64,000 nucleotides of DNA from Syntrophorhabdaceae bacterium (GTDB taxonomy: Bacteria; Desulfobacterota; Syntrophorhabdia; Syntrophorhabdales; Syntrophorhabdaceae): positions 416,001 to 480,000 of the forward strand of contig CAXXUO010000009.1 in NCBI GenBank assembly GCA_963666485.2, in the 5' to 3' direction. Position 1 is the first letter of the stretch; each line of letters begins with the position of its first letter. The notes under the pieces are model-generated. The model searched no databases. It was given only the letters and a program-made list of their open reading frames with translations, and had not been told where the DNA came from. The translations under genes were made by a program, and so were the position numbers. Shown piece by piece: positions 40,517-61,290 of the stretch.

Positions 40517-41383
40517 TTATTCGTGGTACTCCCACGCTGTTTTAAATAATTCTTTTAGACCATCTGATGTCTTCGGATTATCTAATCTAAGCTGAATCGC
40601 AAAGGAATCGGCGCGTTTTTTCTTGTTAAATGCGATTTCGGCATTGTCCAAAAGTTCTTTTATCTTTTCAACGTTTTCATCCCCAACGCGAATTTCGAAG
40701 TGACAGTACGTTTCCTTCTTCTTGGGATGAAACCATGCGAAATTCTTTCTTGGTGTTCCGACCGCTATATGGCCCTTATTGTATGTGATTTTCGGGTTAT
40801 ATCCAAGCCCTTCGATGTTCTTTACGGCCTGGTCAAAAATGGATATCGATTTGTTATTGGCTCGTTTCACCCAGTAAGACCGGTCGGCTTTTTCGGCAGC
40901 TTCCGTATCTTCTTCCTCGGGCTCTTCGTATACATCGAGGACTTTTGTAAAATTGAGGATAATCTTATCTTCATATTTGATTGCAGCGAGTTGAATGGCT
41001 ATTATTGGAATTGATCTATTTAGCAACGAAATCACGTTGAAAAAACGATTGGTAATGTCTTCCGCTACAATGACAGCGACATGGTCCTTTGACAAGAAAC
41101 GACGTCTTTCGATGTCCCAATATTCTATTGTTCGTATAATATGACTCTCATCGAGTGTGCCGAGCATAATCTCGGTTTCATACATGGTCTGAGCATCGGG
41201 ATCTACCAACAAAAGATCAATTTTGCCTCCAGAAGATTGTTTTTTTTCCTTCTGATATAATGTTAAATCGCCTAATCCTAAGATTGATGGATCTTCTGCA
41301 ATTCTATCTTGCAGCCATTTTTCATTAAGGTCAGGATGTTTCTTCAGGCTAATTATATCTGGTTTTATGTATTCAAGATTCAT
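40517..41383 (-). CDS. NucS-like PD-(D/E)XK domain protein with a DUF5655-like C-terminus
   Basis: EKWLQDRI, GGKIDLLLVD, YETEIMLG, HIIRTIEYWD; GAGG RBS. Confidence 0.65.
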   Translation of the reverse strand: MNLEYIKPDIISLKKHPDLNEKWLQDRIAEDPSILGLGDLTLYQKEKKQSSGGKIDLLLVDPDAQTMYETEIMLGTLDESHIIRTIEYWDIERRRFLSKDHVAVIVAEDITNRFFNVISLLNRSIPIIAIQLAAIKYEDKIILNFTKVLDVYEEPEEEDTEAAEKADRSYWVKRANNKSISIFDQAVKNIEGLGYNPKITYNKGHIAVGTPRKNFAWFHPKKKETYCHFEIRVGDENVEKIKELLDNAEIAFNKKKRADSFAIQLRLDNPKTSDGLKELFKTAWEYHE

Positions 41384-42105: not shown

Positions 42106-42654
42106 CTATCCTTGTCCGCAAGCCCTGAGAAGGCTGAACAGTTCCTCCTCGGTCGCGTTTCCCCATTGGACGGCTTCCCTGGGATTTCTGTTGACTGCAT
42201 CGAGCGCCTCTTCTACGGGCAGGCCATACCGATATACGACCCACGCCGCCAGGACATGCCCTGTCCTTCCCAACCCGCCCGAGCAGTGGACAAGGACCGG
42301 CAATTCCTTCTCTTCAGACTCTGCAAGAAACGGAAGGATTTCATCTCTCAGCGCAGAAATCTCTGCAAGATGGAAATCTTTAACCGGAACAGCTAGAACG
42401 TTCAAATCACCGAATTCCTTCGAATACGTTTCGACAAGATTATTTTCATAGTAGGTTTGCAATTCCCGCTCCTGCAAAAGACAGCAAATACGCCTTATCC
42501 CCTTTTCTTTTATAAAAGACAACCAAACGTGTACCGCTGATAAGGACACTTTTCCGGGTCCATAACCCGGTCTTTGAGATCCGAATACAAACCTCTCTTC
42601 CGAACACGCTGGCCCAAACGCAAATTTGTCGTGGCTCACCAACTCCTCCTTCAC
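42106..42654 (-). CDS. Dual-specificity phosphatase family protein
   Basis: VHCSGGLGRTG; GSQRPGY; PVKD. Confidence 0.88.
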   Translation of the reverse strand: MKEELVSHDKFAFGPACSEERFVFGSQRPGYGPGKVSLSAVHVWLSFIKEKGIRRICCLLQERELQTYYENNLVETYSKEFGDLNVLAVPVKDFHLAEISALRDEILPFLAESEEKELPVLVHCSGGLGRTGHVLAAWVVYRYGLPVEEALDAVNRNPREAVQWGNATEEELFSLLRACGQG

Positions 42655-43020: not shown

Positions 43021-46000
43021 ATGATTGAAGAAATAGTAGCTTTAAAAGATAATCATGTTCCAACTATTTTGTTTTATGATTCGGAGCAACAACATTACAT
43101 AATCGGGCAGGAAGCACGCCAATTTGGACTGCAGGGCAAGACTAATGCATTCAATTTCAAGGTTGATCTCGGTGCTAATGATAAGACGTTTTCTCTAGAC
43201 AAGAAGTACTGGATCGTTCCTAAGCATGGATACCTTGAGTCAAAAAAGACGTCCGTTACAATAGATGCACGAAGCCTTACAGCAAAGGAGGTAACCGTAT
43301 TCTTTCTGAAAGAATTTCTCAAAGATCTACAAATGCCCAAGGAGATCATAATTGGTGAACCGGCTGAAAGAGATACCGTGTGGCGAGAAAACTTCAGACG
43401 ACATATGCGAGATGTTTTCGAGGAGCTCTATCACATAACCCCCCAGTTTTTTCCTGAACCTTTTGCGGTGTTTCAGTATTATAGACATTACGAAAGCACG
43501 TTCAGAACCGAGAGTGTGTCTGAGACTGTCCTAATAATTGACGTCGGAGGAGGTACGTTTAACAGTTGCATTATTAGCACTACAGAAGAAGGTTATCTGT
43601 CAAGGGGCGGGGCCAAATCAGTGCCTCAAGGATTTCAGGCGGAATTCTGCGGCGGTACCCAAATAGACAAGAAATTGCTCGAGACAGTAATAGCAAAAGC
43701 AAAACGACAGGGCATAAAATGGAAGGACGATCCAATTGCTCGAGCCGAAAAATCGCAGATCCCAGTGTTATTGACCATAGAGGATGTCAAAATAAAACTG
43801 TCAGATAGAATTGGCCCGTCAGGAAAGCTCTCAGACGATTTTTCTAACATAAAGGAAGTTGTCTGTTTAGAGCAGGGTACTTTGCATCCCGATTCAGATA
43901 TCCGAGTGGAAATCAGTGGAGAGGATCTGAAGCTAGTCATAAGATATATGTGGCGCCATCACTGGGCTAACATTATTACGAAAACCGTCACAGAGGCTAA
44001 GAAAAAAATACAATTTGATAATCTTGATAAAATTCTTGTTGCTGGCGGTTCATCTAGGCTGCCATTCTCGAAAGAAGAAATACACCTTGTTATGAGATCT
44101 CTTGTCGATTTCCAGGACATACACTTTAGTTCCGATACAGGAAAAGCGGTCGCATTTGGAATAGCATGTGAGTGTATGGAACAGATCAAAAGGAACCCTC
44201 AGCTCTCAGTCGGAAAAATAGCTCCATGCATTCTCAACGACCTATATCTAGGATTTCGAAAGACAAGGAGAGATCCGGTGATAATTCCCAAGAAGATTCA
44301 TGGACCAGATGGATCGATCTCTAAGGAAGGTCAACTTCTTTCGGCTCCCTTTGAGACTGAGGAACTATCTCTTAGATACAAAGTTGATTTGCCGTTTGAC
44401 TGTGAAGGACGGCTCTTCTATTGTTTTAGCGACGTACCCTTCGAAGACGGGCCTGATAGAACGTATCTGAATCTCAACCAGGACGTTTTGTCGGTGACAA
44501 ATAGAGGGAGCAAATACCGAAGAAAATGCGAGCTTCAAATTGATTTTAAAACGAATGGCACAATTAAACCCATTTTTTATTTTACAAGGGAAGGTAAAGA
44601 TGCGGGAGAGGAAATAGTACCATGTGGCGAGTTCTATATGGAAAATCTTCGCATACAGGAAGGTGAGAGTTTCCTTGGAATCGATTTCGGATCTTCAAAT
44701 TCATATTTGGCTAAATTACTTAGGGCTGAAGAGAAGGTTCAATCATTTGAATTCCCGGATTATAAAATAAAATCCGAAGTGATGGACCTGCTCAGGAAAC
44801 TTGAAGGAGAAATTGATGAACTGCGCACAGGAAAGGCCCTTAGCAAGCAAGCCATGATGGAGTACGCAAAGGACCAAATACTGCTGTTAGTCTTTCATTC
44901 AAATAAGATCGAGGGTAGTCCCTTGACCAAAGGGGAAACCGAAACGGCATTTGGAAAACAGGAGTCTGTTGAGATTACGAAACAAGAGCTTGAAGCAAGA
45001 AATCTCCGAAATGCGTATGGTTGGATGATTGATAATGCTGATTATGTTTACACCGACCCAGAAGGATTTATCAGACAGGTCAATAGCATGATTCTCGATG
45101 GTATCATTCATGGGGGAGGTGCATACCGAAAGAAAAGTGTGAGTTTGGCTGGAATGGATTACACGCCACCTCCGAGTATATCGATTCCTTCCTATATGGA
45201 GAGACTAAGGGAGGACCTGGTCACCGGACCAACGGGACGTTCTTTGTTGGAGTTCGCCATCACAATGCATACAAAACTTGTTGCAATACATCCCTTTATT
45301 GACGCAAACGGCCGAACGGCGCGGCTGTTGATGAACGCTATCCTATTGGCTGGCGGGCTTCCTGTCGTCATAATAAATTTTGACGACAAACAGAGATACT
45401 TAGACGCCCTGTCCGAATCTAACCATGGCGATATTTCAGCATTAGTAGTCTTTGTGTCGGAATGCTTTCGTGCCCAACTGGATGAGCTTAGAACACAGCC
45501 AGTGATGACTGAAGAAATAATCCCGACAACGACTTTGCCGGAAGGTGCTGATCCCATTGCAGAGGCACTCAAAGAGATAGGGGTGGAATTTGTAGATGAC
45601 CCACTTCAACTAATAATGAATCAGAGGCTTAAGGAATTAGCTGAAATGAAAGAGGCTCAATATGGTTCCTGGAAACAGGCATTTTCAACCTTGCTATCGG
45701 AAATGAGATCCATATGTGAGGGGTTTAACTGTAATTCGAAGTTTAGAAATGAAGGATTCCGCATTGATCTTATGGAATATGATATGCTCTCTTCGGACAA
45801 GTATTTGGATATTTTAGCCAACAAAAAAGTATCAAGAACTTGGTTTTTTGGTTTAGCAGTTCTTGGTCCTTCATCCTATGTCAAGGCGTTATTCTTTTTC
45901 GAACACCTCCCCGTACACTTTGGGGATATGCCCGAGATAAACAAGGTGATGTTGACATTGGTTCGTTTCAATGGTGCAACCTACGATAGACTAACATCAG

Positions 46001-46146
46001 AACCCATAACTTTGAGAGGAGTTGCATATAGCAACGGTCAACTCGTTTTTCTGGGACGCAATAGCATAATAGAAAAGGATACTCCAAGGCATGCGCTTAC
46101 TGTCTTATTGGCCGATTTGATTACCGCCTATGTTACGGTTAAGTAA
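43021..46146 (+). CDS. Hsp70-like ATPase (apparently circularly permuted) fused to a Fic domain
   Basis: PEPFA, IDVGGGTFN, GGTQID, EDVKIKLS, AGGSSRLP, AVAFG; internal LGIDFGSSNS at about aa 552; SNKIEG; HPFIDANGRTAR. Confidence 0.88.
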   Translation: MIEEIVALKDNHVPTILFYDSEQQHYIIGQEARQFGLQGKTNAFNFKVDLGANDKTFSLDKKYWIVPKHGYLESKKTSVTIDARSLTAKEVTVFFLKEFLKDLQMPKEIIIGEPAERDTVWRENFRRHMRDVFEELYHITPQFFPEPFAVFQYYRHYESTFRTESVSETVLIIDVGGGTFNSCIISTTEEGYLSRGGAKSVPQGFQAEFCGGTQIDKKLLETVIAKAKRQGIKWKDDPIARAEKSQIPVLLTIEDVKIKLSDRIGPSGKLSDDFSNIKEVVCLEQGTLHPDSDIRVEISGEDLKLVIRYMWRHHWANIITKTVTEAKKKIQFDNLDKILVAGGSSRLPFSKEEIHLVMRSLVDFQDIHFSSDTGKAVAFGIACECMEQIKRNPQLSVGKIAPCILNDLYLGFRKTRRDPVIIPKKIHGPDGSISKEGQLLSAPFETEELSLRYKVDLPFDCEGRLFYCFSDVPFEDGPDRTYLNLNQDVLSVTNRGSKYRRKCELQIDFKTNGTIKPIFYFTREGKDAGEEIVPCGEFYMENLRIQEGESFLGIDFGSSNSYLAKLLRAEEKVQSFEFPDYKIKSEVMDLLRKLEGEIDELRTGKALSKQAMMEYAKDQILLLVFHSNKIEGSPLTKGETETAFGKQESVEITKQELEARNLRNAYGWMIDNADYVYTDPEGFIRQVNSMILDGIIHGGGAYRKKSVSLAGMDYTPPPSISIPSYMERLREDLVTGPTGRSLLEFAITMHTKLVAIHPFIDANGRTARLLMNAILLAGGLPVVIINFDDKQRYLDALSESNHGDISALVVFVSECFRAQLDELRTQPVMTEEIIPTTTLPEGADPIAEALKEIGVEFVDDPLQLIMNQRLKELAEMKEAQYGSWKQAFSTLLSEMRSICEGFNCNSKFRNEGFRIDLMEYDMLSSDKYLDILANKKVSRTWFFGLAVLGPSSYVKALFFFEHLPVHFGDMPEINKVMLTLVRFNGATYDRLTSEPITLRGVAYSNGQLVFLGRNSIIEKDTPRHALTVLLADLITAYVTVK

Positions 46147-50915: not shown

Positions 50916-53900
50916 TTATAGCATTTTCTTTATTCTTTCCAGGAAAATTGTTTTAGCTGTATCGGATAATCCCTGAAATTTGGCTACGAGACCGTCCACT
51001 TCAAGCTCGTCAAGTCGTTTATCACACGAAGCTGCAGCCGCATGCACTTTCTTGAGATCTTCTTCGCTGAGGAAAGCAGGGGGGTTTTGCAATTTTACAC
51101 GGATTTGGTTCACGCTTACCGCGTCAAGAGTGGAAATGGCCGAGGCTCCCGGCACTGAAGTGTCAATCCACCTGATAGATTGTTCTTTCCGCTGTATTTT
51201 GCACGAATCTAAAAGTTTTTCATAAGTCTCTTCTATATCCCACGGTGGTTCTTCTTCATCGAAAGCATCCTTGGCTTTGGATAAACAATTCGTGAATATA
51301 TCTAGCTGTTGTTCGTCGGTAATTTGGAGAGAACCGAATTCATGGAAATGATCTATCATCATTCGCAAATAGCTATCAATGGTCTTAAAGTCCTCAAGAT
51401 CTTTGTCTTGACCCTCATAAAGATCTCGTAATATTCCAACCTCTCGCAAAATATCACTTATATCATCAATTTTCGAAATATCGCTATTCCATAATTGTTC
51501 TCCGCGTTCTTTGTCTGCATCTAATTGTTTTTGGCATTTATCTCTCAAATCGCGAATTTTTCCTGCAGCGGAATCCAATTGTGGTATCGCGCTAGATGAT
51601 TTATTTGATCTTGCCGATAGAATAGTATCCGATATACGTTTTGCGGTACTCATAATATTATGAAGATCTTTCACTTTAGTAAATTCAGATATTATTTGCG
51701 AATTGACAAAGGCATTGGCTTCATCAACAACGTATTTTATTCGCTGATTTTCATCAATATCGGACCTTATTCGATCAACATGATCTTCTAATTTTTTTCG
51801 TTCTTCCGGCAATCCAAGGGTCGTTAAATTCTGCTGAATGCGTCGCATTTTCTGTTCAAAATCACCCCAAGCTTTGAGATCTATAATAACTTCACCCTTG
51901 ACCCAACTCGGAAAAAATTGCTTGGTTGCATTTTTTGCTTTTTGAAGAAGGTTCTCAACTCGAGAGAAATCTTCGTCCAGCCAAGCATCCTCTTTGTTAT
52001 TCATTCGGTCCAAAATCCTGGCCAACTCTGCCCCGCATCTCGATATATTGCCAGCGTTTTGTTTTTGATAGGCTCTTTCCAGAAACTCATCCTGTTTTTC
52101 AATTTCGTTATCCCAACGTTCGAGCTCATCTTGTGCGTCTTTGGAGCGATTCGCAAGCAACTCGTAGTGATGCAATCTATCGGGAGGGAGAGGTATTCGT
52201 TTTTTAAGCTCATAGGCCTTAAAAATCCAATCAAGTTGTGCGCGATATTTTTTTTCAGAATCCCACGAACTGAGGAGATCATTCCATTCATCCGTAGCCC
52301 CAGTGTCTACGGCCTTTATGGCGGTTGACTCCAAGTAATTCAGTGAAAGATAGTTGCCGGTAAAAGCTCCACTCAACCACTTATCGATAGGTATGATTTC
52401 ACTACCGATCAAAAACCATAATTTATCATGGCGAGGACAAATGAATAGACCAATGAGCATACCGGCTGAAGCTATGTTACAGCCATACGGGGGTAGGCAA
52501 AGCTCACGTGCAAAAGAACCCAGATTTACCGATATTCCCGCCTTCAACTGAGAATCAAGCGTGGCGCATATCTTAGCTACCGAACTGTTGCGAGGCTTCG
52601 TTGTTATCAAGCCATCGGAACCCAATGCTTTCCAACTATTATTTAGAACAGAAACAAGGCGATTCCTCTGCTGGGCATTGCGTGTTGCGATGTAACTTTG
52701 AGTGAGGCTACCCCTAAAAAGTTCCGTTGTGAATACTTGACAATCCTTCGCTGCGCCTCCTTTGGTTTTATGAAAGCCATCAAACGGGAAAGGGATGCAG
52801 GAAGTATATATTCCATTAAAAAGATCGTATAGAGCGTCTCTGATTTTGATTCCGCGCTTCAGTTGCTTATTGCCGGCGAAAAATAAGCCTTCATTCTCCT
52901 GTTTCCTAAAAGTTCCCTGCAATTCTTCTAATGCATTAGGTTGCCTATCCATGATGAAATTTGTAAATCGTTTCATATCTTCATCATTGCCTTTATTGGC
53001 AAGAATCCAATGTTCTGCGATTAATTTACCGAGATTGCCATCTTTATCGTGAAGAAATGCCACTAGCAAAGGGATTTTAGTATCTTCATTGACGCCAAGC
53101 TTTTCGAGGGTTGAGTTCCATAACAGAGTGCTGTTTTCGACAACCCGAGCATAATCGCTATCAGGTCCAACATAACAATAGATGAGTTGTCCTCGGGGAT
53201 CATCCGGTGTGACCGCCTCTCTCCAATTACGGATAGCATATGCAATATGGCCACCAAGCATTTGTATTGTCGAGATTGTAACTGTATATTTCCATTCGGG
53301 TGTTGTAATCTGATTCTTCATCCCGAAATCTGTTTCTACGTGATCAATGGACAGCCAATCCTTAATGTGAGTTGCGAAAAGTTCTCCTCGCTTATCAAGT
53401 GATATTTCACTGATCTTGGCTTCGAGGACATCCAGGAAAGCACGCCTAGGAAGAGCATCGCCGATGATCTCGAACTGATGAATGGAATCATTCCATTCGA
53501 TCACATTATGTTCAGATGTAAGTCTTTTTATCGTTTCTTTTATTTCTTTTGTTTGTCTTGCACTGAGCGAGCCTAGGATTGTTTCCCATTCCTGTTGTGT
53601 TTCGCCACGGCAACTTACTTTGGACGCGAGCAATATTGCTTTAAGAACATCAACATCCTTGCTTTTGAATTCATGAGAATATTTATTTATGACGGTGCCG
53701 TAAGCATGGGCCATCGCGCCCTGCTGCCCGAATCTTTCTGAAGCTATGAATTCATTTATCATATCATCGGTGCATAACGCAGTCGCAGGAAGTGTCCAAT
53801 ATCCATTCGCAACTTCCTTGGCGCGATATTGATCTATCGCTAATGCCAATAAGTACAGCGCTGAACGGTTTTGAAGAGATTTACCTGCAGCGGACAACTT

Positions 53901-55169
53901 ATAGAGAAACCAGGTTGCCATAGGATGCAGAGGCCAACATCCTTCCACTATTATTTTGGAAAAATGCGCTGGTTCTATCCAGAGAGGATATTTTGATGAA
54001 TCCGGGAACCATTGCTTTAAATTATGCATAGTTTGATACTTCTCGGATTCGCTCACGTTTTTCTCTATATATGTTTTCAATAACTTTTCATCTTTCTTCT
54101 GTATTAAGCTTGCAATAAGGGTTTCAAGATTTGTTGAAAGATGAACTCTTGTTGCTGAATCATAGCGTGTGACGTATCTATTGAGACCGTCACGGAACTC
54201 CGGCGCTACCCTCGACATATATGCTTTCAATTCATACTGGATGAAACATAATAGTGAGACTACATCGCTTTCGGCTTGTACGGCCTCGAAAAGTTGCTGC
54301 AATACTCCACTGCCCGCTACATAAGGTTTCTGGACCGCAAACTCCAAGTAGCGCCCAAATTCGTCGAATATGATGAAGATCCCTTTAAATGCCTTATCGG
54401 GGCCGCAGTAGGTCTTACGTAAAACCGACATGAATTCTTGCAATGATTCCTGCCCGACCGATATGATTGGTGTTCCCATTTTGTCTTCAAAAATACGACT
54501 TATTTTCTCAAATACTTCTTCGTCTTGATCTAAAAGCCGTTGAAGCAAAGCTTCTTTGTTAACATCCCGACCAAAGATTTCGGAAAATTCTTTTTCTAAC
54601 GATTCATAAAATGATTCAACGAAGCTCTTAGCCGACTTAAACCGCGGCCGAAGATCTTCCAAGGGTTTGACGTCGAGGTTATGCAATTTCAGGCGTAAGA
54701 AAACCTGCCGAATTATTTCCCGTGACAAGTTAAAATCCTGCATTCCGTTAATGGCGAGAACCAGATAAGGTTGTTCGAGATTCGTCAGTATATGGGAGAC
54801 AAGAGATCCGATTGAACCATCGGCTTGTTTAATATTATCGATAATACACTTAGCCGTATCTCCGTCGGGTTCGCTCAAAAGTTCAGCAATTGTTACCCCT
54901 AAATGAGACTTGCCCGTGCCCCAACCCGAGATCGCGAGCGTAAAGGGGTCGGACGAATTATCCTCTCCCGTTATTCTTGTGAGGATGTCTCTGACAAAAG
55001 TAGCTGTATCTATGTCGGATTCGCCTGCACCATGATAGTCAGGCCCGTGGAAAACAAAATGTTCGGCTGCCTTTTTGCTTTGGGAAGGATCAGTTTCAAA
55101 CCAACTTATCTGGACCGCTCCTTGAAAAAGACGGTCTTTACGGAAAGTAATTAAATCGGCAAGTTTCAT
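50916..55169 (-). CDS. Large P-loop ATPase, SspC/BrxC-like
   Basis: SGWGTGKSHL, IIFDEFGRYLE, CWPLHP, LQNRS; long helical C-terminus; follows a DUF4007-like gene. Confidence 0.7.
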   Translation of the reverse strand: MKLADLITFRKDRLFQGAVQISWFETDPSQSKKAAEHFVFHGPDYHGAGESDIDTATFVRDILTRITGEDNSSDPFTLAISGWGTGKSHLGVTIAELLSEPDGDTAKCIIDNIKQADGSIGSLVSHILTNLEQPYLVLAINGMQDFNLSREIIRQVFLRLKLHNLDVKPLEDLRPRFKSAKSFVESFYESLEKEFSEIFGRDVNKEALLQRLLDQDEEVFEKISRIFEDKMGTPIISVGQESLQEFMSVLRKTYCGPDKAFKGIFIIFDEFGRYLEFAVQKPYVAGSGVLQQLFEAVQAESDVVSLLCFIQYELKAYMSRVAPEFRDGLNRYVTRYDSATRVHLSTNLETLIASLIQKKDEKLLKTYIEKNVSESEKYQTMHNLKQWFPDSSKYPLWIEPAHFSKIIVEGCWPLHPMATWFLYKLSAAGKSLQNRSALYLLALAIDQYRAKEVANGYWTLPATALCTDDMINEFIASERFGQQGAMAHAYGTVINKYSHEFKSKDVDVLKAILLASKVSCRGETQQEWETILGSLSARQTKEIKETIKRLTSEHNVIEWNDSIHQFEIIGDALPRRAFLDVLEAKISEISLDKRGELFATHIKDWLSIDHVETDFGMKNQITTPEWKYTVTISTIQMLGGHIAYAIRNWREAVTPDDPRGQLIYCYVGPDSDYARVVENSTLLWNSTLEKLGVNEDTKIPLLVAFLHDKDGNLGKLIAEHWILANKGNDEDMKRFTNFIMDRQPNALEELQGTFRKQENEGLFFAGNKQLKRGIKIRDALYDLFNGIYTSCIPFPFDGFHKTKGGAAKDCQVFTTELFRGSLTQSYIATRNAQQRNRLVSVLNNSWKALGSDGLITTKPRNSSVAKICATLDSQLKAGISVNLGSFARELCLPPYGCNIASAGMLIGLFICPRHDKLWFLIGSEIIPIDKWLSGAFTGNYLSLNYLESTAIKAVDTGATDEWNDLLSSWDSEKKYRAQLDWIFKAYELKKRIPLPPDRLHHYELLANRSKDAQDELERWDNEIEKQDEFLERAYQKQNAGNISRCGAELARILDRMNNKEDAWLDEDFSRVENLLQKAKNATKQFFPSWVKGEVIIDLKAWGDFEQKMRRIQQNLTTLGLPEERKKLEDHVDRIRSDIDENQRIKYVVDEANAFVNSQIISEFTKVKDLHNIMSTAKRISDTILSARSNKSSSAIPQLDSAAGKIRDLRDKCQKQLDADKERGEQLWNSDISKIDDISDILREVGILRDLYEGQDKDLEDFKTIDSYLRMMIDHFHEFGSLQITDEQQLDIFTNCLSKAKDAFDEEEPPWDIEETYEKLLDSCKIQRKEQSIRWIDTSVPGASAISTLDAVSVNQIRVKLQNPPAFLSEEDLKKVHAAAASCDKRLDELEVDGLVAKFQGLSDTAKTIFLERIKKML

Positions 55170-55188
55170 TGAATCCTCTTATTAATAC

Positions 55189-56004
55189 CTATTTGTAAAT
55201 TTGAGACCAAACTTCTGAAGATGGTTGTAATTTGTGAATGATCCATGGACGCATCTGCCTGTCTATCCTGACCGAGTTGGTCTCTTCAATGAGATTGAGA
55301 ATGGCGTCTGTATCCGATTGAACCCAGGAAGCGGCGTCGAACATTCCGCTAACTGAATTAAGGTCGTATGCAGTAACCTGTATTTGACCGGGAAATTCAT
55401 CTTCGATGATCTGTAAAATATAAGCTGCGTAAACTCTTGCGTAATTCCTGGCAATTGGCGCCTTACCGCTAACAACCTGCTTTTCCAGTTTTTTCAAAGG
55501 ATCTATTTTGCCTAATGCAACATCGTCATGATAAGTTCTTATTAAAGGACCAATCCGATTCCTACCGGGTCCAAAAATGTTCTTGAGATAGTCCTCAAGC
55601 TTGGTCACCGTGAAGGAAGCACCCAATATATCTCTGCCCCTGACAAATGTCTCATACCATGCCGCTGCACCATGCGAAGGATGACATAAACTGAGGTGCG
55701 CGATCCACTGGGTTACCGGTTGACTCAGCAAAGCATCTTCAAGCAACACAATTCGACCAAAATTCGTTAGAACAGGATGTCTGATACCGTTCTTGGATTT
55801 CAAATCATACTGGATTAAGCCCATTCCCCTAGCATAATCTATGATTGCCGGCACCTTGCCATTTGATTTTCCCATCGGGATCCCGGTGGCACCGGCTATG
55901 TCATGGTAGCTTCCTGACAAACCGTTTCCCGCATACTGAAGCAAGCTATTAAGCAGTCGTCTTTCCGGAATAAAAGTTCTATGAAAGTTAATTGGCAATG
56001 ACAT
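55189..56004 (-). CDS. DUF4007-like (SspB-like) protein
   Basis: FHRTF, KVPAIIDYARGMGLI, LTNFGRIVLLEDALL...TQWIAHLSL...AAAWYETF. Confidence 0.68.
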   Translation of the reverse strand: MSLPINFHRTFIPERRLLNSLLQYAGNGLSGSYHDIAGATGIPMGKSNGKVPAIIDYARGMGLIQYDLKSKNGIRHPVLTNFGRIVLLEDALLSQPVTQWIAHLSLCHPSHGAAAWYETFVRGRDILGASFTVTKLEDYLKNIFGPGRNRIGPLIRTYHDDVALGKIDPLKKLEKQVVSGKAPIARNYARVYAAYILQIIEDEFPGQIQVTAYDLNSVSGMFDAASWVQSDTDAILNLIEETNSVRIDRQMRPWIIHKLQPSSEVWSQIYK

Positions 56005-59000
56005 TTAGGTCGCACTCTCCTTACCAATATCTTTGAAACGTGATCTTAAAGATTCGATCTTGATGTGAAATGCTTTCGTCTCGAGCCCCTGCTGAGTGTT
56101 CAGCGAAGGTCCTAGGGAATAACATTCTCCTTTTTTAAGCCTGGAAAGACGTTGTATCCATATTTCAGCTTTTTCATTCGTGGTGTTTTCCAATATTTGG
56201 GCATAACTTCGCAATTCGGTATCCGCGGGCTTAAAGAATAATTTATGACTCGCTTGAAATAATCTGTCTTGTTCATCTTTTTTAAGATTGCTTAGAGTCT
56301 GCGTTGCCACAATGAGGGAGATCCCGAATTTTCTTCCCTCCGTTAGAAATTTACCGAGAGGACTTTCAAGGTCATGATCCAGGTTTTGAATTTCATCGAG
56401 TATTATGATCCTGGGTCTGTCTTTATTGCCCTTACCACGATAATACCAGTATAGATCGATAAGGGTGAATTCCGTGATCAACTTCGATGCATCCTTTAGA
56501 AAACCTGCCAGTTGAAGGATATGACAGCGGGAATTTTGATCCATAAACAAGGTCTCCCAATTATCGCCTTCCTCAGCGCCAAACGGATTCATATCGACAA
56601 AAGGCTGGATCTTGCTTACGACCGTCAAAGAAGATGGATTTTCGTCAACCATTTCTTTGAGTTCTTCGATCAATAAAGGCAAGGTCATTTCATTTCCGTG
56701 CGTTTCTATTCCTCTCTTTATGGCCGTGTAGAGGGCCGATTTTTGCTGGTCGCCAAATTCGTAAACTTCGGAAAAAACCCCGCTAACCCTCTGTGCCGTA
56801 TTAGACGGGTCTTCCGGAAGAAGCATTTCGCCGATCATGTCTTCCTGCCGCCTGAAAGGATTTATGGGTAATGGATCCTTTCGTACAATATGTTGAACAG
56901 GTTTCAACATCTTTCTTGTCTCAGTTTCCAGCTGATTGTCATAAAATCCGTTGGTATAGTCCACTATTAAAGAATTTTGGCCGGCCCGACCGAGTTCACA
57001 TAATAAGGCTTGGATCGCATACGTCTTTCCCATCCCGGACGTGCCAAATATGAGTATATGCCTGTTCGCTAAGTCCTGGTGACCGAATTCCCAGAACACT
57101 TGTCTATTGCCTTGAGCGCCTTGGCCCAGAAAGATCCTCTGGGGCAATTTCGGCTCAATTGTGCCGCGATACTCGGGTTCGCTAACGTCCGGTTTCTTGT
57201 CTGAGATTGATGTCTGTGAATCGTTGTCCGAAGCACTGCCCGTCTCACCTCCCGGTGCTTGTTGTTTCTCTTCGTTGATTTCTATCGAAGGTTTTATTTC
57301 TTTTTCTAGCGTAATACTTGAATAATCAAGGCTTTGTTCACCCAAAGGCAAATAGGTATCAAGGTTGTTCAGGCATAGAGATTTTACGAATTGACGGCCG
57401 GCGGATATCACCCCTGCCATCAGAGTGTTTTCGCCTACTTGAAACTCCCAATCGGCGACCCTGGCTATGTTCGATTGATCGGAGTCAGTCCAAAAGGTAA
57501 CCGCCGCCGCCTTCCATTGAATCGTAAAAAAACCATCGCTCAGCCTCTCAAGGGCATTAATAGCATCTTTAAACTGCGGATACTTCACTCGTCCCTTGCT
57601 CGCTATCAGGCGTTGGAGCTGCAGCCACCAATATCGCTGATCGGGCCTGTCATCAATTCCCTCATTCTTACCTTGACGAGGTTTGAAGCAATCTACCAAA
57701 TGGCTCAGACCACTCTGAAGCTGTTCTCGGGCCTTTTCAAGATGCGTCTCAGATTCCTGGGCGAGTTTGCACTCGAACAGTTGCGATTCGATCCGGAACT
57801 GCCCATCTATTATTGTGGCCTTCAAACGCAATAGATCTGGTCTGTTATTATTTGGTGACGAATCAAACCAATGCCGAAAGGCATCGAGAGAGACAATCTC
57901 GTCACAGAAAGCATCGGCATCCCTTGGAAGCAATTTTCGCAACAAAGCGTACGAGATATAATCTCTGACGTATTGCGACGGCCCCGTGGCCTTAACGAGG
58001 GACAAACCCGCCATATGCAGAGATTCGCTGATGATGCTTGATGCCATATTGTTGCTTGCCTCGTGATCCAAAGGCCCCAGTTTCGACGCTATGTGCGACG
58101 CAATCTTAGACCGGACTTGTGCGATCCTGAAGAAATCCGTCGATATGGTATAGTTATGCTCGCCATGGCTACCGACGCCAGACCCAAATCCGATAATTTC
58201 TCTTTGCCGGATACCATTATGATCTTCTTTTCCTATTAGCCTTTCATCTACGGATGGGTCGATACACACTACCCAGGTGCTTCTTTCGTGCAGTTTGTCG
58301 ACCAGTCTTTTCCAAGGTGCAAAATCGCCTTTTCCCATTACTATGTAATCCTTCTCTGCAACATGCGTCGGCAGCTTCAAGCGTGCCATTACTTGAGAAT
58401 GCAGGGTGCCTAAGACAAATTGGCGATTGCTGATAATCCTTTCGCGTACCCAATCCATACCGCCGCCTACCACTGAGCAACAGGCTTTTTCTAAGACGGG
58501 GAACATTCGGAATTTTCCGCTTGCGTCATACGGCTCAATCTCTTCAAACTTATTTCCCCCCGCCCCTGCACGGACAAAATGGACCAAGAAGGATAGATCA
58601 ACATTAATTTGGGAGATCAGGTTTTCGAACAATGTATGGTCTTTCTGCTGGGTAATGAGGCGGTGAGCAACTGAGATCTTACACCAACTGTAGTAGTCAT
58701 ACTTTGCCGAATACTCTGCACCAATCCACCTTTCACGCCAAGCACTAACCCATTTTGTCATTGCGGTGTCATCCTGAGTTTCGGCAAAGAGGATGAGCGA
58801 AAGAGTGTAAGGTCTATCGCCGCTCCTAATTTTTGCCAGTTCGCGCAAATAGGCATCTATACCTGCTATAACAGGTTGGACAGGCCCCCCGCAGTAGGCA
58901 CTTATGGATAGGCCATCGTCAGCGTGGGCATACAGTGACCGATAGTCTTCCAATACCCTTTGAATAAGTCGAGACTCTCGGGTTTCTTCGAACAAGTCCT

Positions 59001-61290
59001 CATCCGATATATCATCCTCGTCGCCCGTATCATAACGAAGAAGAAGTTTCGTCGACAGGCTGGTATCACCGGAGCTATCTTCACCGACTATATGGAAAAT
59101 TCCGAAACTCTTTACGTTTGTGTCCAAGATCTGGTCTTCGTTGCGGAGCGTACCGTATATTGGCCATTGTATTTTGGCGAGGTCCATGACATCCGTCCAC
59201 CGCCTCTCATTAAATCCTTTTTGGCTAGATACCCATAGCGCTTGTCGTGCCGCAGTTTCGAAACTTTCAGAAAGAAAGGAATGTTGGTGTACGATCATCT
59301 CAAGGAGTGCCGGGTGCAAAGGAGTGATAATTGCTGAAGGCTCGAAGCCCTTCCATATCCACAGGCTTGTCGGGTGATCCTCACGTTCACCCACCATAAA
59401 AAATGCCTTGAACAGCAGGGCGCCCAATCGGCTCGTTTTACACTCGGGATCCACCAGAAATGCTTTGTACGTCTTCCGATAGGCTGCATCCAGTGGACCG
59501 AACTTATTATTTAGCGCCGAAAAGAGGCCTTCTTCATGGGCTTCCTTAATGAAGTGTCCGTAGGCATAAGCAAGTTCCATCAAATGAGAGTATGTCTTGT
59601 CGTGCGTGTCTATGCCGTCGGCGCCAAGAAGATGCACGATATTTTTCGATTCGCTCTCCAAAGCCTGCACCAATATTCGATTTACTTCATCATCATCTTT
59701 TGCCAATGAGAGCTCTTCGCTGTAAGGAATGCAGAAGACGGGCAAGGCATTAATGCGCTTTGAAAGCGCATGTTCATATGCCCAAGAAAACATGGAAGCC
59801 ATATTACGGTATGGATGGTTCTTGGGAATAGGCCAAACGAATTTTCTTGTGACGCCCTTGTTGGGTCCTAAAATAGACACCGTAAATTCCAAAAGGGGTT
59901 CGGCTCTAATAGACCGATTATAAGCCAGATCACCATCCTCCATAGAAGGGCACAGGGAGCAACTGATTCCTATGGTATCCTCAGGTGTTTCTCTGGGATT
60001 AGGTGCGAACGCAAGGTGTTCTTCAATATAATTATCGAGACCTCCGATCAGCTGTCTTAAAAGTTGGTGTGCGATATCCGGGTCATTTTCTTCGCAGTCA
60101 TGCCGAAACAAGTTCCCTTGGATCCTGATCTCTTTGATTGCTTCGCCTGCAATTATCCCCTGTTCTTGCGTCCACCTTTTATATTCAGCCAAAGTTATCC
60201 AGACCGATCGCAGAACAACTTCAAGGGGCATCCCTGTTAACTTTCTTGTCTTTATTTCCCTGCTTTTTTCCTTTCTTTTCCTAAACCCAAGAATCTCGTC
60301 CAAAATGTAGGGAAAATCTGAATACATCAAATTTGCTTGTGCATTCGAATCCTTTTTCTCGATGTAACGCTTCAGATCTTCAATCAATTCTTGAATCGTC
60401 TTATAGTGACCACCTAAATCATCGAGATCTACCTCTTCCGCCTTCCCGGTCTCTATTAAGTGCTGCAAATATTGATCAATTTTTTGAATCGCTTTCTTTC
60501 GGCCTTGTTTATCAAGAAAACTTCCATAGTTAAAAAATTCCACGGCGGACTTAATATAGTGGCGAATTCGAACTTTTCTTTTAGCCGACATCAATCCCTT
60601 CATAGAGGGAAGTCTAAAGTACCCCAAACTTTCTACGATAACCCTCATGGCATCCCTGCCATCCTGGGCATGCGAAAGGTCGATGCTTTCCAAAAAAATG
60701 CTTATCCGGATAATATCGGCAAGACTCGTGTCGACGAGTGACTTGAGTATCTCGTCTATAAAAGCAATGTGATCACTTTCCGCTTCGACAGAAGCCTCCT
60801 TGAGCCTTCGTCTTATCCAGGGTGAGAACGTGCCTTGAAGCCACTGCTCCCATAATGTTTGGTAATCAAGCCGATAGAAGTCATAGAGACTTGCTTGGTC
60901 GGGTACCTGATCGGATCCGATCAATACGGTAACCAGGACATCTTCCGTTTGGGGATTTCTTTTTTCGTTTCTCGAAGCTGTAAGATGATTTTCTGCATCA
61001 TACCACCCGCGCTGCTCAATCTCCTTGAACAGGGCCGACTCTTCCGGATCGTTGCTTGCTCTCCATAGTTGGCCCAACCTGTATGCCGTTTTTATGATTA
61101 ACTTGATCCGACAATCCGGCTTTTTGGTATCGCGGTATTCCTCCAATGCCTCACCAATTGCGAGGACGATCCTTGCTGGGGCAGAAGGCAATACGACTCT
61201 GAGCTCCCTTGCGTCAGTTGACGGGGTCTTCAACATATTCTTGATTTGTTCTAGGATTGCATCTATTACCGAAGAGGAGTAGAAGATCAT
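56005..61290 (-). CDS. DndH/SspH-like protein with a C-terminal HerA/FtsK-type ATPase
   Basis: 1761 aa; HILIFGTSGMGKT, ILDEIQN, EGRKFGISLIVATQ; internal PDLL...ECK nuclease-like motif; TPLHP. Confidence 0.75.
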   Translation of the reverse strand: MIFYSSSVIDAILEQIKNMLKTPSTDARELRVVLPSAPARIVLAIGEALEEYRDTKKPDCRIKLIIKTAYRLGQLWRASNDPEESALFKEIEQRGWYDAENHLTASRNEKRNPQTEDVLVTVLIGSDQVPDQASLYDFYRLDYQTLWEQWLQGTFSPWIRRRLKEASVEAESDHIAFIDEILKSLVDTSLADIIRISIFLESIDLSHAQDGRDAMRVIVESLGYFRLPSMKGLMSAKRKVRIRHYIKSAVEFFNYGSFLDKQGRKKAIQKIDQYLQHLIETGKAEEVDLDDLGGHYKTIQELIEDLKRYIEKKDSNAQANLMYSDFPYILDEILGFRKRKEKSREIKTRKLTGMPLEVVLRSVWITLAEYKRWTQEQGIIAGEAIKEIRIQGNLFRHDCEENDPDIAHQLLRQLIGGLDNYIEEHLAFAPNPRETPEDTIGISCSLCPSMEDGDLAYNRSIRAEPLLEFTVSILGPNKGVTRKFVWPIPKNHPYRNMASMFSWAYEHALSKRINALPVFCIPYSEELSLAKDDDEVNRILVQALESESKNIVHLLGADGIDTHDKTYSHLMELAYAYGHFIKEAHEEGLFSALNNKFGPLDAAYRKTYKAFLVDPECKTSRLGALLFKAFFMVGEREDHPTSLWIWKGFEPSAIITPLHPALLEMIVHQHSFLSESFETAARQALWVSSQKGFNERRWTDVMDLAKIQWPIYGTLRNEDQILDTNVKSFGIFHIVGEDSSGDTSLSTKLLLRYDTGDEDDISDEDLFEETRESRLIQRVLEDYRSLYAHADDGLSISAYCGGPVQPVIAGIDAYLRELAKIRSGDRPYTLSLILFAETQDDTAMTKWVSAWRERWIGAEYSAKYDYYSWCKISVAHRLITQQKDHTLFENLISQINVDLSFLVHFVRAGAGGNKFEEIEPYDASGKFRMFPVLEKACCSVVGGGMDWVRERIISNRQFVLGTLHSQVMARLKLPTHVAEKDYIVMGKGDFAPWKRLVDKLHERSTWVVCIDPSVDERLIGKEDHNGIRQREIIGFGSGVGSHGEHNYTISTDFFRIAQVRSKIASHIASKLGPLDHEASNNMASSIISESLHMAGLSLVKATGPSQYVRDYISYALLRKLLPRDADAFCDEIVSLDAFRHWFDSSPNNNRPDLLRLKATIIDGQFRIESQLFECKLAQESETHLEKAREQLQSGLSHLVDCFKPRQGKNEGIDDRPDQRYWWLQLQRLIASKGRVKYPQFKDAINALERLSDGFFTIQWKAAAVTFWTDSDQSNIARVADWEFQVGENTLMAGVISAGRQFVKSLCLNNLDTYLPLGEQSLDYSSITLEKEIKPSIEINEEKQQAPGGETGSASDNDSQTSISDKKPDVSEPEYRGTIEPKLPQRIFLGQGAQGNRQVFWEFGHQDLANRHILIFGTSGMGKTYAIQALLCELGRAGQNSLIVDYTNGFYDNQLETETRKMLKPVQHIVRKDPLPINPFRRQEDMIGEMLLPEDPSNTAQRVSGVFSEVYEFGDQQKSALYTAIKRGIETHGNEMTLPLLIEELKEMVDENPSSLTVVSKIQPFVDMNPFGAEEGDNWETLFMDQNSRCHILQLAGFLKDASKLITEFTLIDLYWYYRGKGNKDRPRIIILDEIQNLDHDLESPLGKFLTEGRKFGISLIVATQTLSNLKKDEQDRLFQASHKLFFKPADTELRSYAQILENTTNEKAEIWIQRLSRLKKGECYSLGPSLNTQQGLETKAFHIKIESLRSRFKDIGKESAT

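Follow-up and report, generated by a model that had tools for sequence, protein, structure and literature searches.

Hsp70 chaperones are among the most conserved proteins known, and one-gene defences of the STAND and NACHT type (Avs, bNACHT) use an NTPase switch with swappable effectors. Divergent Hsp70 nucleotide-binding and substrate-binding domains (SBD) occur in conflict systems, namely CoCoNuT CnuD, Hsp70-McrB fusions (PMC11090510), and the Hsp70s of DO-GTPase/GAP1-N2 systems (PMC7159879). A sensor role has been proposed for lidless DnaK-like domains that occur in fusion with EACC1-protease modules (PMC12642450). Among Fic enzymes, FICD recognizes BiP through TPR (PMC8373988), Sofic aborts phage infection through AMPylation (PMC12249575), and SoFic AMPylates EF-Tu (10.64898/2026.07.09.737422). 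An allosteric link to the active site has been suggested for the helix that precedes the inhibitory helix of SoFic.

The protein described here, P0001, shares with Hsp70/DnaK (and with Hsp110 and Ssz1) the actin-fold ATPase, all catalytic motifs, and a linker strand followed by an SBD-beta-like sandwich. Unlike them, it is permuted, lidless, and only 20 to 21% identical to DnaK, does not keep the J-domain arginine, carries a fused output, and is encoded by an accessory gene. FICD/HYPE and BiP are two proteins, whereas P0001 is one chain without TPR, in which, on a weak alignment, the loop threonine is not conserved and a tail domain is added. SoFic is likewise a bacterial class II Fic but ends in a winged-helix tail and lacks an ATPase sensor. 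EACC1-protease-DnaK modules also place a lidless Hsp70-like domain in a defence module, yet their DnaK part is about 50% identical to DnaK and works with a protease and a pore former (PMC12642450), while P0001 has no protease domain. The CoCoNuT and DO-GTPase/GAP1-N2 systems are multigene and the CnuD motifs described as degenerate (PMC11090510, PMC7159879), whereas P0001 stands alone and the motifs of its family are invariant. The main texts of these two papers make no mention of permutation or Fic, and the stem "permut" is absent from the main text of PMC12642450. The likeness to STAND/NACHT proteins is one of analogy, a one-gene switch with a swappable effector on an unrelated NTPase fold. 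On the tested features, P0001 falls outside DnaK, FICD, SoFic, CnuD, and EACC1-DnaK. A literature search turned up neither a permuted Hsp70 nor a fusion of Hsp70 to Fic in bacteria; subscription journals lay mostly outside its range, and supplementary tables, those of defence-gene surveys for instance, could list such proteins. The permuted Hsp70-Fic family is real and conserved, apparently undescribed, and a structurally unusual variant on the theme of Hsp70 in defence.

Architecture of P0001

P0001 is encoded within the window, i.e., the whole stretch of 64,000 nucleotides analyzed here, and its parts are as follows.

43021..46146, + strand: whole ORF of P0001 (1041 aa), with permuted Hsp70 module, class II Fic domain (by motif), and C-terminal domain
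43021..44196, + strand: Hsp70 ATPase core without its first two strands, aa 1-392, with K47, E146, D174, T179, GGSS at 342-345, and the connect-2 glycine G380
44197..44640, + strand: linker and SBD-beta-like beta-sandwich without helical lid, aa 393-540
44653..44727, + strand: beta1-beta2 hairpin in its displaced position, aa 545-569, carrying LGIDFGSSNS as phosphate-1 motif; D555 and G557 invariant
44767..45504, + strand: class II Fic domain (by motif), aa 583-828, with inhibitory SNKIEG at 44899-44916 (E631) and catalytic HPFIDANGRTAR at 45289-45324 (H757)
45592..46143, + strand: C-terminal alpha/beta domain (from the model) without family match, aa 858-1041, behind a disordered linker, with profile matches to stand-alone Fic proteins

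The N-terminal half runs from VPT at residue 13 (within VPTILFYD) through PEPFA (145-149), IDVGGGTF (173), and AGGSSRL (341) to KAVAFG (375-380). About 165 residues later follow LGIDFGSSNS (552-561; 44674-44703), SNKIEG (627-632), and HPFIDANGRTAR (757-768). The only Pfam families recognized are HSP70 (33 bits, residues 166-385) and Fic (57 bits, residues 683-775). The ATG is preceded by a purine-rich GGGGGAG that ends two bases 5' of it; a promoter scan gave 8 hits against 9.1 expected, and a repeat search revealed nothing notable. The AlphaFold2 model has a mean pLDDT of 90.4 and a pTM of 0.61, the latter of which suggests that the placement of the Fic domain on the Hsp70 module is not fixed in the model.

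The Hsp70 module is circularly permuted

P0001 is a circularly permuted, lidless Hsp70. Its residues 5-388 align with residues 29-376 of the host DnaK, and the missing phosphate-1 hairpin, corresponding to DnaK 2-28, is found at residues 548-574 (probability 80, E 1.4e-5), C-terminal of the SBD-beta-like sandwich. A sequence-only reading of the window had proposed this permutation, and the fusion to a Fic domain, from motifs that include VPTILFYD, LGIDFGSSNS, SNKIEG, and HPFIDANGRTAR, whose coordinates proved exact, and had noted that no phosphate-1 motif lies just upstream of the ATG. The latter holds as well: in all six frames of the window, 44677 is the sole place at which the phosphate-1 pattern turns up, and the 3 kb upstream gave no match to an HMM of the hairpin. 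Moreover, the stop-to-stop frame measures 1046 codons against an ORF of 1041 residues, so the upstream space is too small for the roughly 28 missing residues.

The same reading had named an ordinary N-terminal GIDFG in homologs, with truncation or misassembly of this copy, as one possible objection. Among 229 full-length relatives (proteins of at least 850 residues with the ATPase core, 101 with and 128 without the Fic motif), the hairpin is internal, at about residues 520-660, in 228 and N-terminal to the core in none. In P0320, for instance, it lies at 586-607 as in the other relatives; the sole exception is P0160, with a 3.5-bit hairpin trace at 524-539. No phosphate-1 motif was seen by eye in the six longest N-terminal extensions among the relatives. 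Since this motif order is common to relatives from independent sources, and the nearest of them (78, 74, and 72% identity) have an identical start and length, the chance that a truncated, misassembled, or fortuitous motif accounts for the arrangement is negligible; judged by the sequences of the relatives, that explanation is already refuted.

The hairpin strands (545-555 and 560-569) are modeled at a pLDDT of about 90. L96-I554, a hairpin-to-core pair, is the top covariation pair (rank 1, z 9.0); 18 such pairs stand among the top 120, of which only 4 fit Hsp70 geometry and the rest are noise-like. The best non-self match of the hairpin profile in 29,207 frames was the DnaK N terminus, at an E of only 0.41. 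With the hairpin moved to its end, the module anchors the SBD on either side, and the ATP- and Mg-holding strand carries the output domain directly. A natural permutation of Hsp70 is thus fixed across hundreds of sequences without loss of the catalytic residues, and this doubly tethered, lidless SBD with an output on the phosphate-1 strand offers a natural experiment on Hsp70 allostery.

ATPase and SBD-beta-like domain

The Asp, Lys, Glu, Asp, and Thr of the Hsp70 site have established catalytic roles, and P0001 has an actin-fold nucleotide-binding domain of the Hsp70 type in which all five are kept: D555 in 108/108 rows, K47 in 100/100 nongap rows, E146 and D174 in 105/105, and T179 conserved. 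Of 261 modules, only 10 have Arg at the position aligned with the DnaK arginine used by J-domains.

Placement of an SBD-beta behind the linker is supported by structure: the model of a sister family protein (see below) superimposes on 5e84 over 450 aligned residues (rmsd 5.3 A), while the P0001 model fits 5obu at 12 A. By sequence, the SBD-like region and DnaK are barely alike (probability 0.7), and its profile did not recover DnaK in hmmsearch. No helical lid (SBD-alpha) is present in the model, where the sandwich passes directly into the hairpin. Three core residues of the SBD-like domain, Y467, F469, and G513, are near-invariant in both families; a peptide-binding role of this domain is conjectural.

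Fic domain and C-terminal tail

By its motifs, the Fic part is a class II Fic with a FICD-like fold, for which AMPylation and de-AMPylation are predicted. The inhibitory (S/T)xxxE(G/N) motif lies N-terminal of the catalytic motif, with S627 kept in 107 and E631 in all of 108 sequences; H757 is kept in 107/108, and H757, D761, N763, G764, R765, and R768 each in 107 to 108. Compared with HPFx(D/E)GN(G/K)R, the HPFIDANGR of P0001 has Ala in place of Gly at 762 (A in 16 and G in 91 of 108). The nearest solved structure is FICD, whose matching part opens at residue 187, with the hairpin of P0001 in front of the match; this top rank may simply reflect how few bacterial Fics of this kind have solved structures. 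The class II layout proposed from the motifs is thereby borne out. PADLOC's SoFic profile matches residues 577-822 at 79 bits, and NCBIfam SoFic (NF046030) scores 20.1 bits, below its cutoff of 550.

The Fic domain and tail also exist without the Hsp70 module, in stand-alone proteins of about 430 to 490 residues (e.g., P0186, P0193, P0177, and P0175, found with tail profile A6). One stand-alone Fic protein with the same tail, P0174 (608 aa), additionally has a NUDIX-like domain.

Family members and a sister family with another output

A word search for relatives of P0001 gave 92 proteins, most of 1020 to 1060 residues and 24 to 78% identical, and a representative search added deeper members. 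Six deep Fic-type lineages (P0090, P0131, P0133, P0135, P0141, and P0143) carry SNRIEG and are 21 to 26% identical to P0001; the distance of their ATPase cores to that of P0001 is about that of the sister family.

The sister family, represented by P0091 (about 900 to 930 aa), has the same permuted module at about 25 to 31% identity and no Fic domain. P0091 had 207 matches, 120 of them listed, and the family includes at least 128 full-length proteins. Its C-terminal domain, of about 300 residues and helical plus beta, is unrelated to the output of P0001; conserved in it are H735 (127/127), K734 (125/127), E654 (123), N754 (122), and an RSAGP motif. HEPN RNases carry an R-x4-6-H motif on a helical bundle. 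The sister domain has a somewhat HEPN-like look but not the usual Arg: H735 is kept, and the position five residues before it is hydrophobic. A HEPN family with His but no Arg has been listed (PMC3710099). The sister domain had no usable match in PADLOC, and the C-terminal domains of both families had none in Pfam or PDB sequences. An Atlas search with the two domains gave no match in one run and unnamed clusters (0.81-0.82) in the other, and in fold searches with the whole models, Hsp70 and Fic took up the matches. We point out both as uncharacterized domains; that the sister domain is toxic is a guess.

In a quick, unrooted tree of 55 ATPase cores (a random subset of 29 Fic-type and 25 sister proteins, plus the host DnaK), the two families fall on opposite sides of one branch (support 89), with one label change. 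This single change implies that module and output are separable parts, and the finding of the module with another output, together with Fic plus tail alone, implies that the module drives swappable outputs; only one output change was seen among the collected proteins. A search for longer fusions (1100 to 3140 aa), weak in that it missed known 1100-aa members and may have passed over a third output type, gave one match, P0348. In this 1752-aa protein, a sister-type module is cut about 80 residues into the C-terminal domain and followed by NRPS domains; it is probably a chimera or rearrangement.

A proposed sensor-effector mechanism

We lean, with moderate confidence, towards P0001 being a one-gene defence protein against phage, in which an Hsp70 sensor is joined to a toxic effector. 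The Hsp70 module would serve as an ATP-dependent switch and not as a foldase. At rest, E631 would hold the Fic domain off or permit de-AMPylation. Binding of a phage protein or unfolded peptide by the SBD-like domain, or the ensuing hydrolysis, would move the hairpin, and with it the helix that begins about 15 residues further on and leads into the inhibitory helix. E631 would then be displaced, and the Fic domain would AMPylate an essential host protein in trans, for which EF-Tu is the precedent, halting the infected cell. More tentatively, and with somewhat less than even confidence, the two families may together be one-gene immune receptors of a class not yet described. Their circularly permuted Hsp70 would be a chaperone turned into a decoy or sensor, with the substrate-binding domain tied into the ATP-binding strand in such a way that binding of viral or misfolded proteins mechanically triggers the fused toxin. 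If true, STAND/NLR receptors would have a counterpart based on Hsp70, and the Fic branch would echo the FICD-BiP circuit within a single bacterial protein; the sister branch would use a possibly new nuclease-like domain where the other family has Fic.

A distinctly unlikely alternative makes the Hsp70 module a private chaperone or antitoxin-like clamp that holds the effector in its folded or inactive form and is released by proteolysis, by exhaustion of ATP, or when the module is lost, and not by an SBD ligand. It would fit the permutation, by which the effector fold begins at the ATP-binding strand, the scarcity of the J-domain arginine, and the P0091 model, a single rigid body (pLDDT 90.8, pTM 0.87). 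Stand-alone Fic-plus-tail proteins, however, do without the module, and Y467, F469, and G513 of the SBD-like domain are near-invariant in both families.

The sequence-only reading had offered either an enzyme-substrate or a sensor-effector pair. The sister family, with its other output, strengthened the sensor-effector half. We regard the enzyme-substrate half, in which the Fic domain would AMPylate and de-AMPylate its own Hsp70 module or the host DnaK and so tune the chaperone, as very unlikely. In its favor, the Fic domain is nearest to FICD among solved structures, and by our own mapping a Thr occupies the matching loop in the host DnaK. The sister module is also modeled in a pose resembling ATP-state BiP, the state preferred by FICD (PMC8373988). 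Against it, P0001 has no TPR match in Pfam and its FICD alignment opens only at residue 187. E524, which matches BiP Thr518, is replaced by Lys in 60 of the 108 sequences, by a gap in 23, and by Ser in 3. This mapping is anchored at an NG turn in a weak alignment and draws on the sequence context in BiP and on the Thr518/525/527 spacing (PMC4739761); by the same mapping, no position from 522 to 531 has a conserved Ser or Thr. The module occurs without Fic and Fic without the module. The lack of TPR, the apparent lack of a conserved loop Thr, and the separable parts together weaken the FICD/BiP analogy.

The sensor-effector reading makes P0001 a directly clonable single-gene candidate for a long-suspected idea, that chaperone-like domains sense phage proteins or proteotoxic stress and set off a toxin. 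It could also show how an allosteric partner, and not a shift in oligomer state, activates a class II Fic.

Distribution and genomic context

The P0001 gene is accessory and patchy, not housekeeping, with a modest enrichment of defence genes around its relatives. The host carries a normal DnaK besides P0001. The gene was found in none of 30 relatives, 18 of the same genus included (0/18), and in 2 of 401 genomes of the phylum, its own among them; the other copy is a 919-codon frame of sister length. In viral contigs, 186 pattern matches yielded no confirmed copy. GC content drops from about 0.55 to 0.42-0.45 beyond about 40 kb of the window, and the surrounding genes are as follows.

40517-41383, - strand: 288-aa ORF with a weak PDC-S11 match
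42106-42654, - strand: dual-specificity phosphatase, divergent from P0001
47134-50885, - strand: Macro-domain protein (571 aa) with unmatched C-terminal part, 227-aa ORF, and Schlafen AlbA_2 protein (355 aa)
50916-61290, - strand: operon of SspC-like (1417 aa), SspB/DUF4007-like (271 aa), and SspH/DndH-like HerA (1761 aa) proteins, all far from their profiles

Downstream of P0001 thus lie the Macro and Schlafen genes and the SspB/SspC/SspH-DndH-like operon, a candidate divergent phosphorothioate or BREX-like system. Neither the phosphatase nor the 288-aa ORF recurs beside P0001 relatives. Across 80 metagenome loci, no recurring partner gene was found, in keeping with the original description of a stand-alone gene, and the gene was not seen fused to, or in an operon with, McrB/McrC homologs. 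AAA_5-like genes lie near only two loci (L081 and L158) and are not adjacent.

Neighbors within 5 kb were scanned at 22 loci of each type, picked for longer flanks from 41 Fic-type and 39 sister loci. A PADLOC match of at least 150 bits, a threshold set after the lists had been seen, was present at 8 of 22 loci of each type and in none of 17 control windows (Fisher p 0.003); two of the loci (L138 and L151) are not independent. The controls were 17 of 20 drawn random 10-kb windows of the host's own genome only (132/154 ORFs), where the best match reached 119 bits. Without a kinase, an IscS, and a partial MzaA, 6 Fic-type and 7 sister loci remain (13/44, p 0.012); for Fic-type loci alone, p is 0.027. 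The matched neighbors comprise PsyrTA, type I and II RM, Mrr, DndH, SspH, AbiE, HEC-06, and Hma. With 13 to 16 of 44 loci beside defence genes against 0/17 controls, and with the low-GC region and its Ssp-like operon, the defence-island setting claimed for this gene is upheld.

The other 28 of 44 loci have no strong defence neighbor, and several, among them L086, L098, and L110, lie in housekeeping surroundings. This leaves room for a reading that we consider rather unlikely, in which the same switch reads general proteotoxic stress, an unfolded load leading to reversible AMPylation of a translation factor and to slowed synthesis or dormancy, in effect an unfolded-protein response made of one protein. 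A lidless SBD-beta-like sandwich on an intact ATPase would suit such an input, class II Fics add and remove AMP (10.64898/2026.07.09.737422), and stress sensing has been raised for lidless DnaK-like fusions (PMC12642450). Yet the patchy, island- and plasmid-borne spread is typical of conflict genes and not of core stress regulators, and no DnaJ or GrpE was found in 99 Pfam-scanned neighbors of Fic-type loci. Phage defence by a sensor-effector protein is the reading that we prefer.

At seven loci (L098, L099, L104, L133, L136, L142, and L144), copies are split into at least two ORFs by stops or frame changes, which could reflect decay of a costly gene or sequence errors. Examples of sister loci are L137:9938-12652 and L189:7938-10670, and the L137 copy lies 3' of, and codirectional with, a type I RM operon. 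Another sister gene sits on a conjugative plasmid of Bradyrhizobium, flanked by the transfer genes and by a DUF6361-helicase locus.
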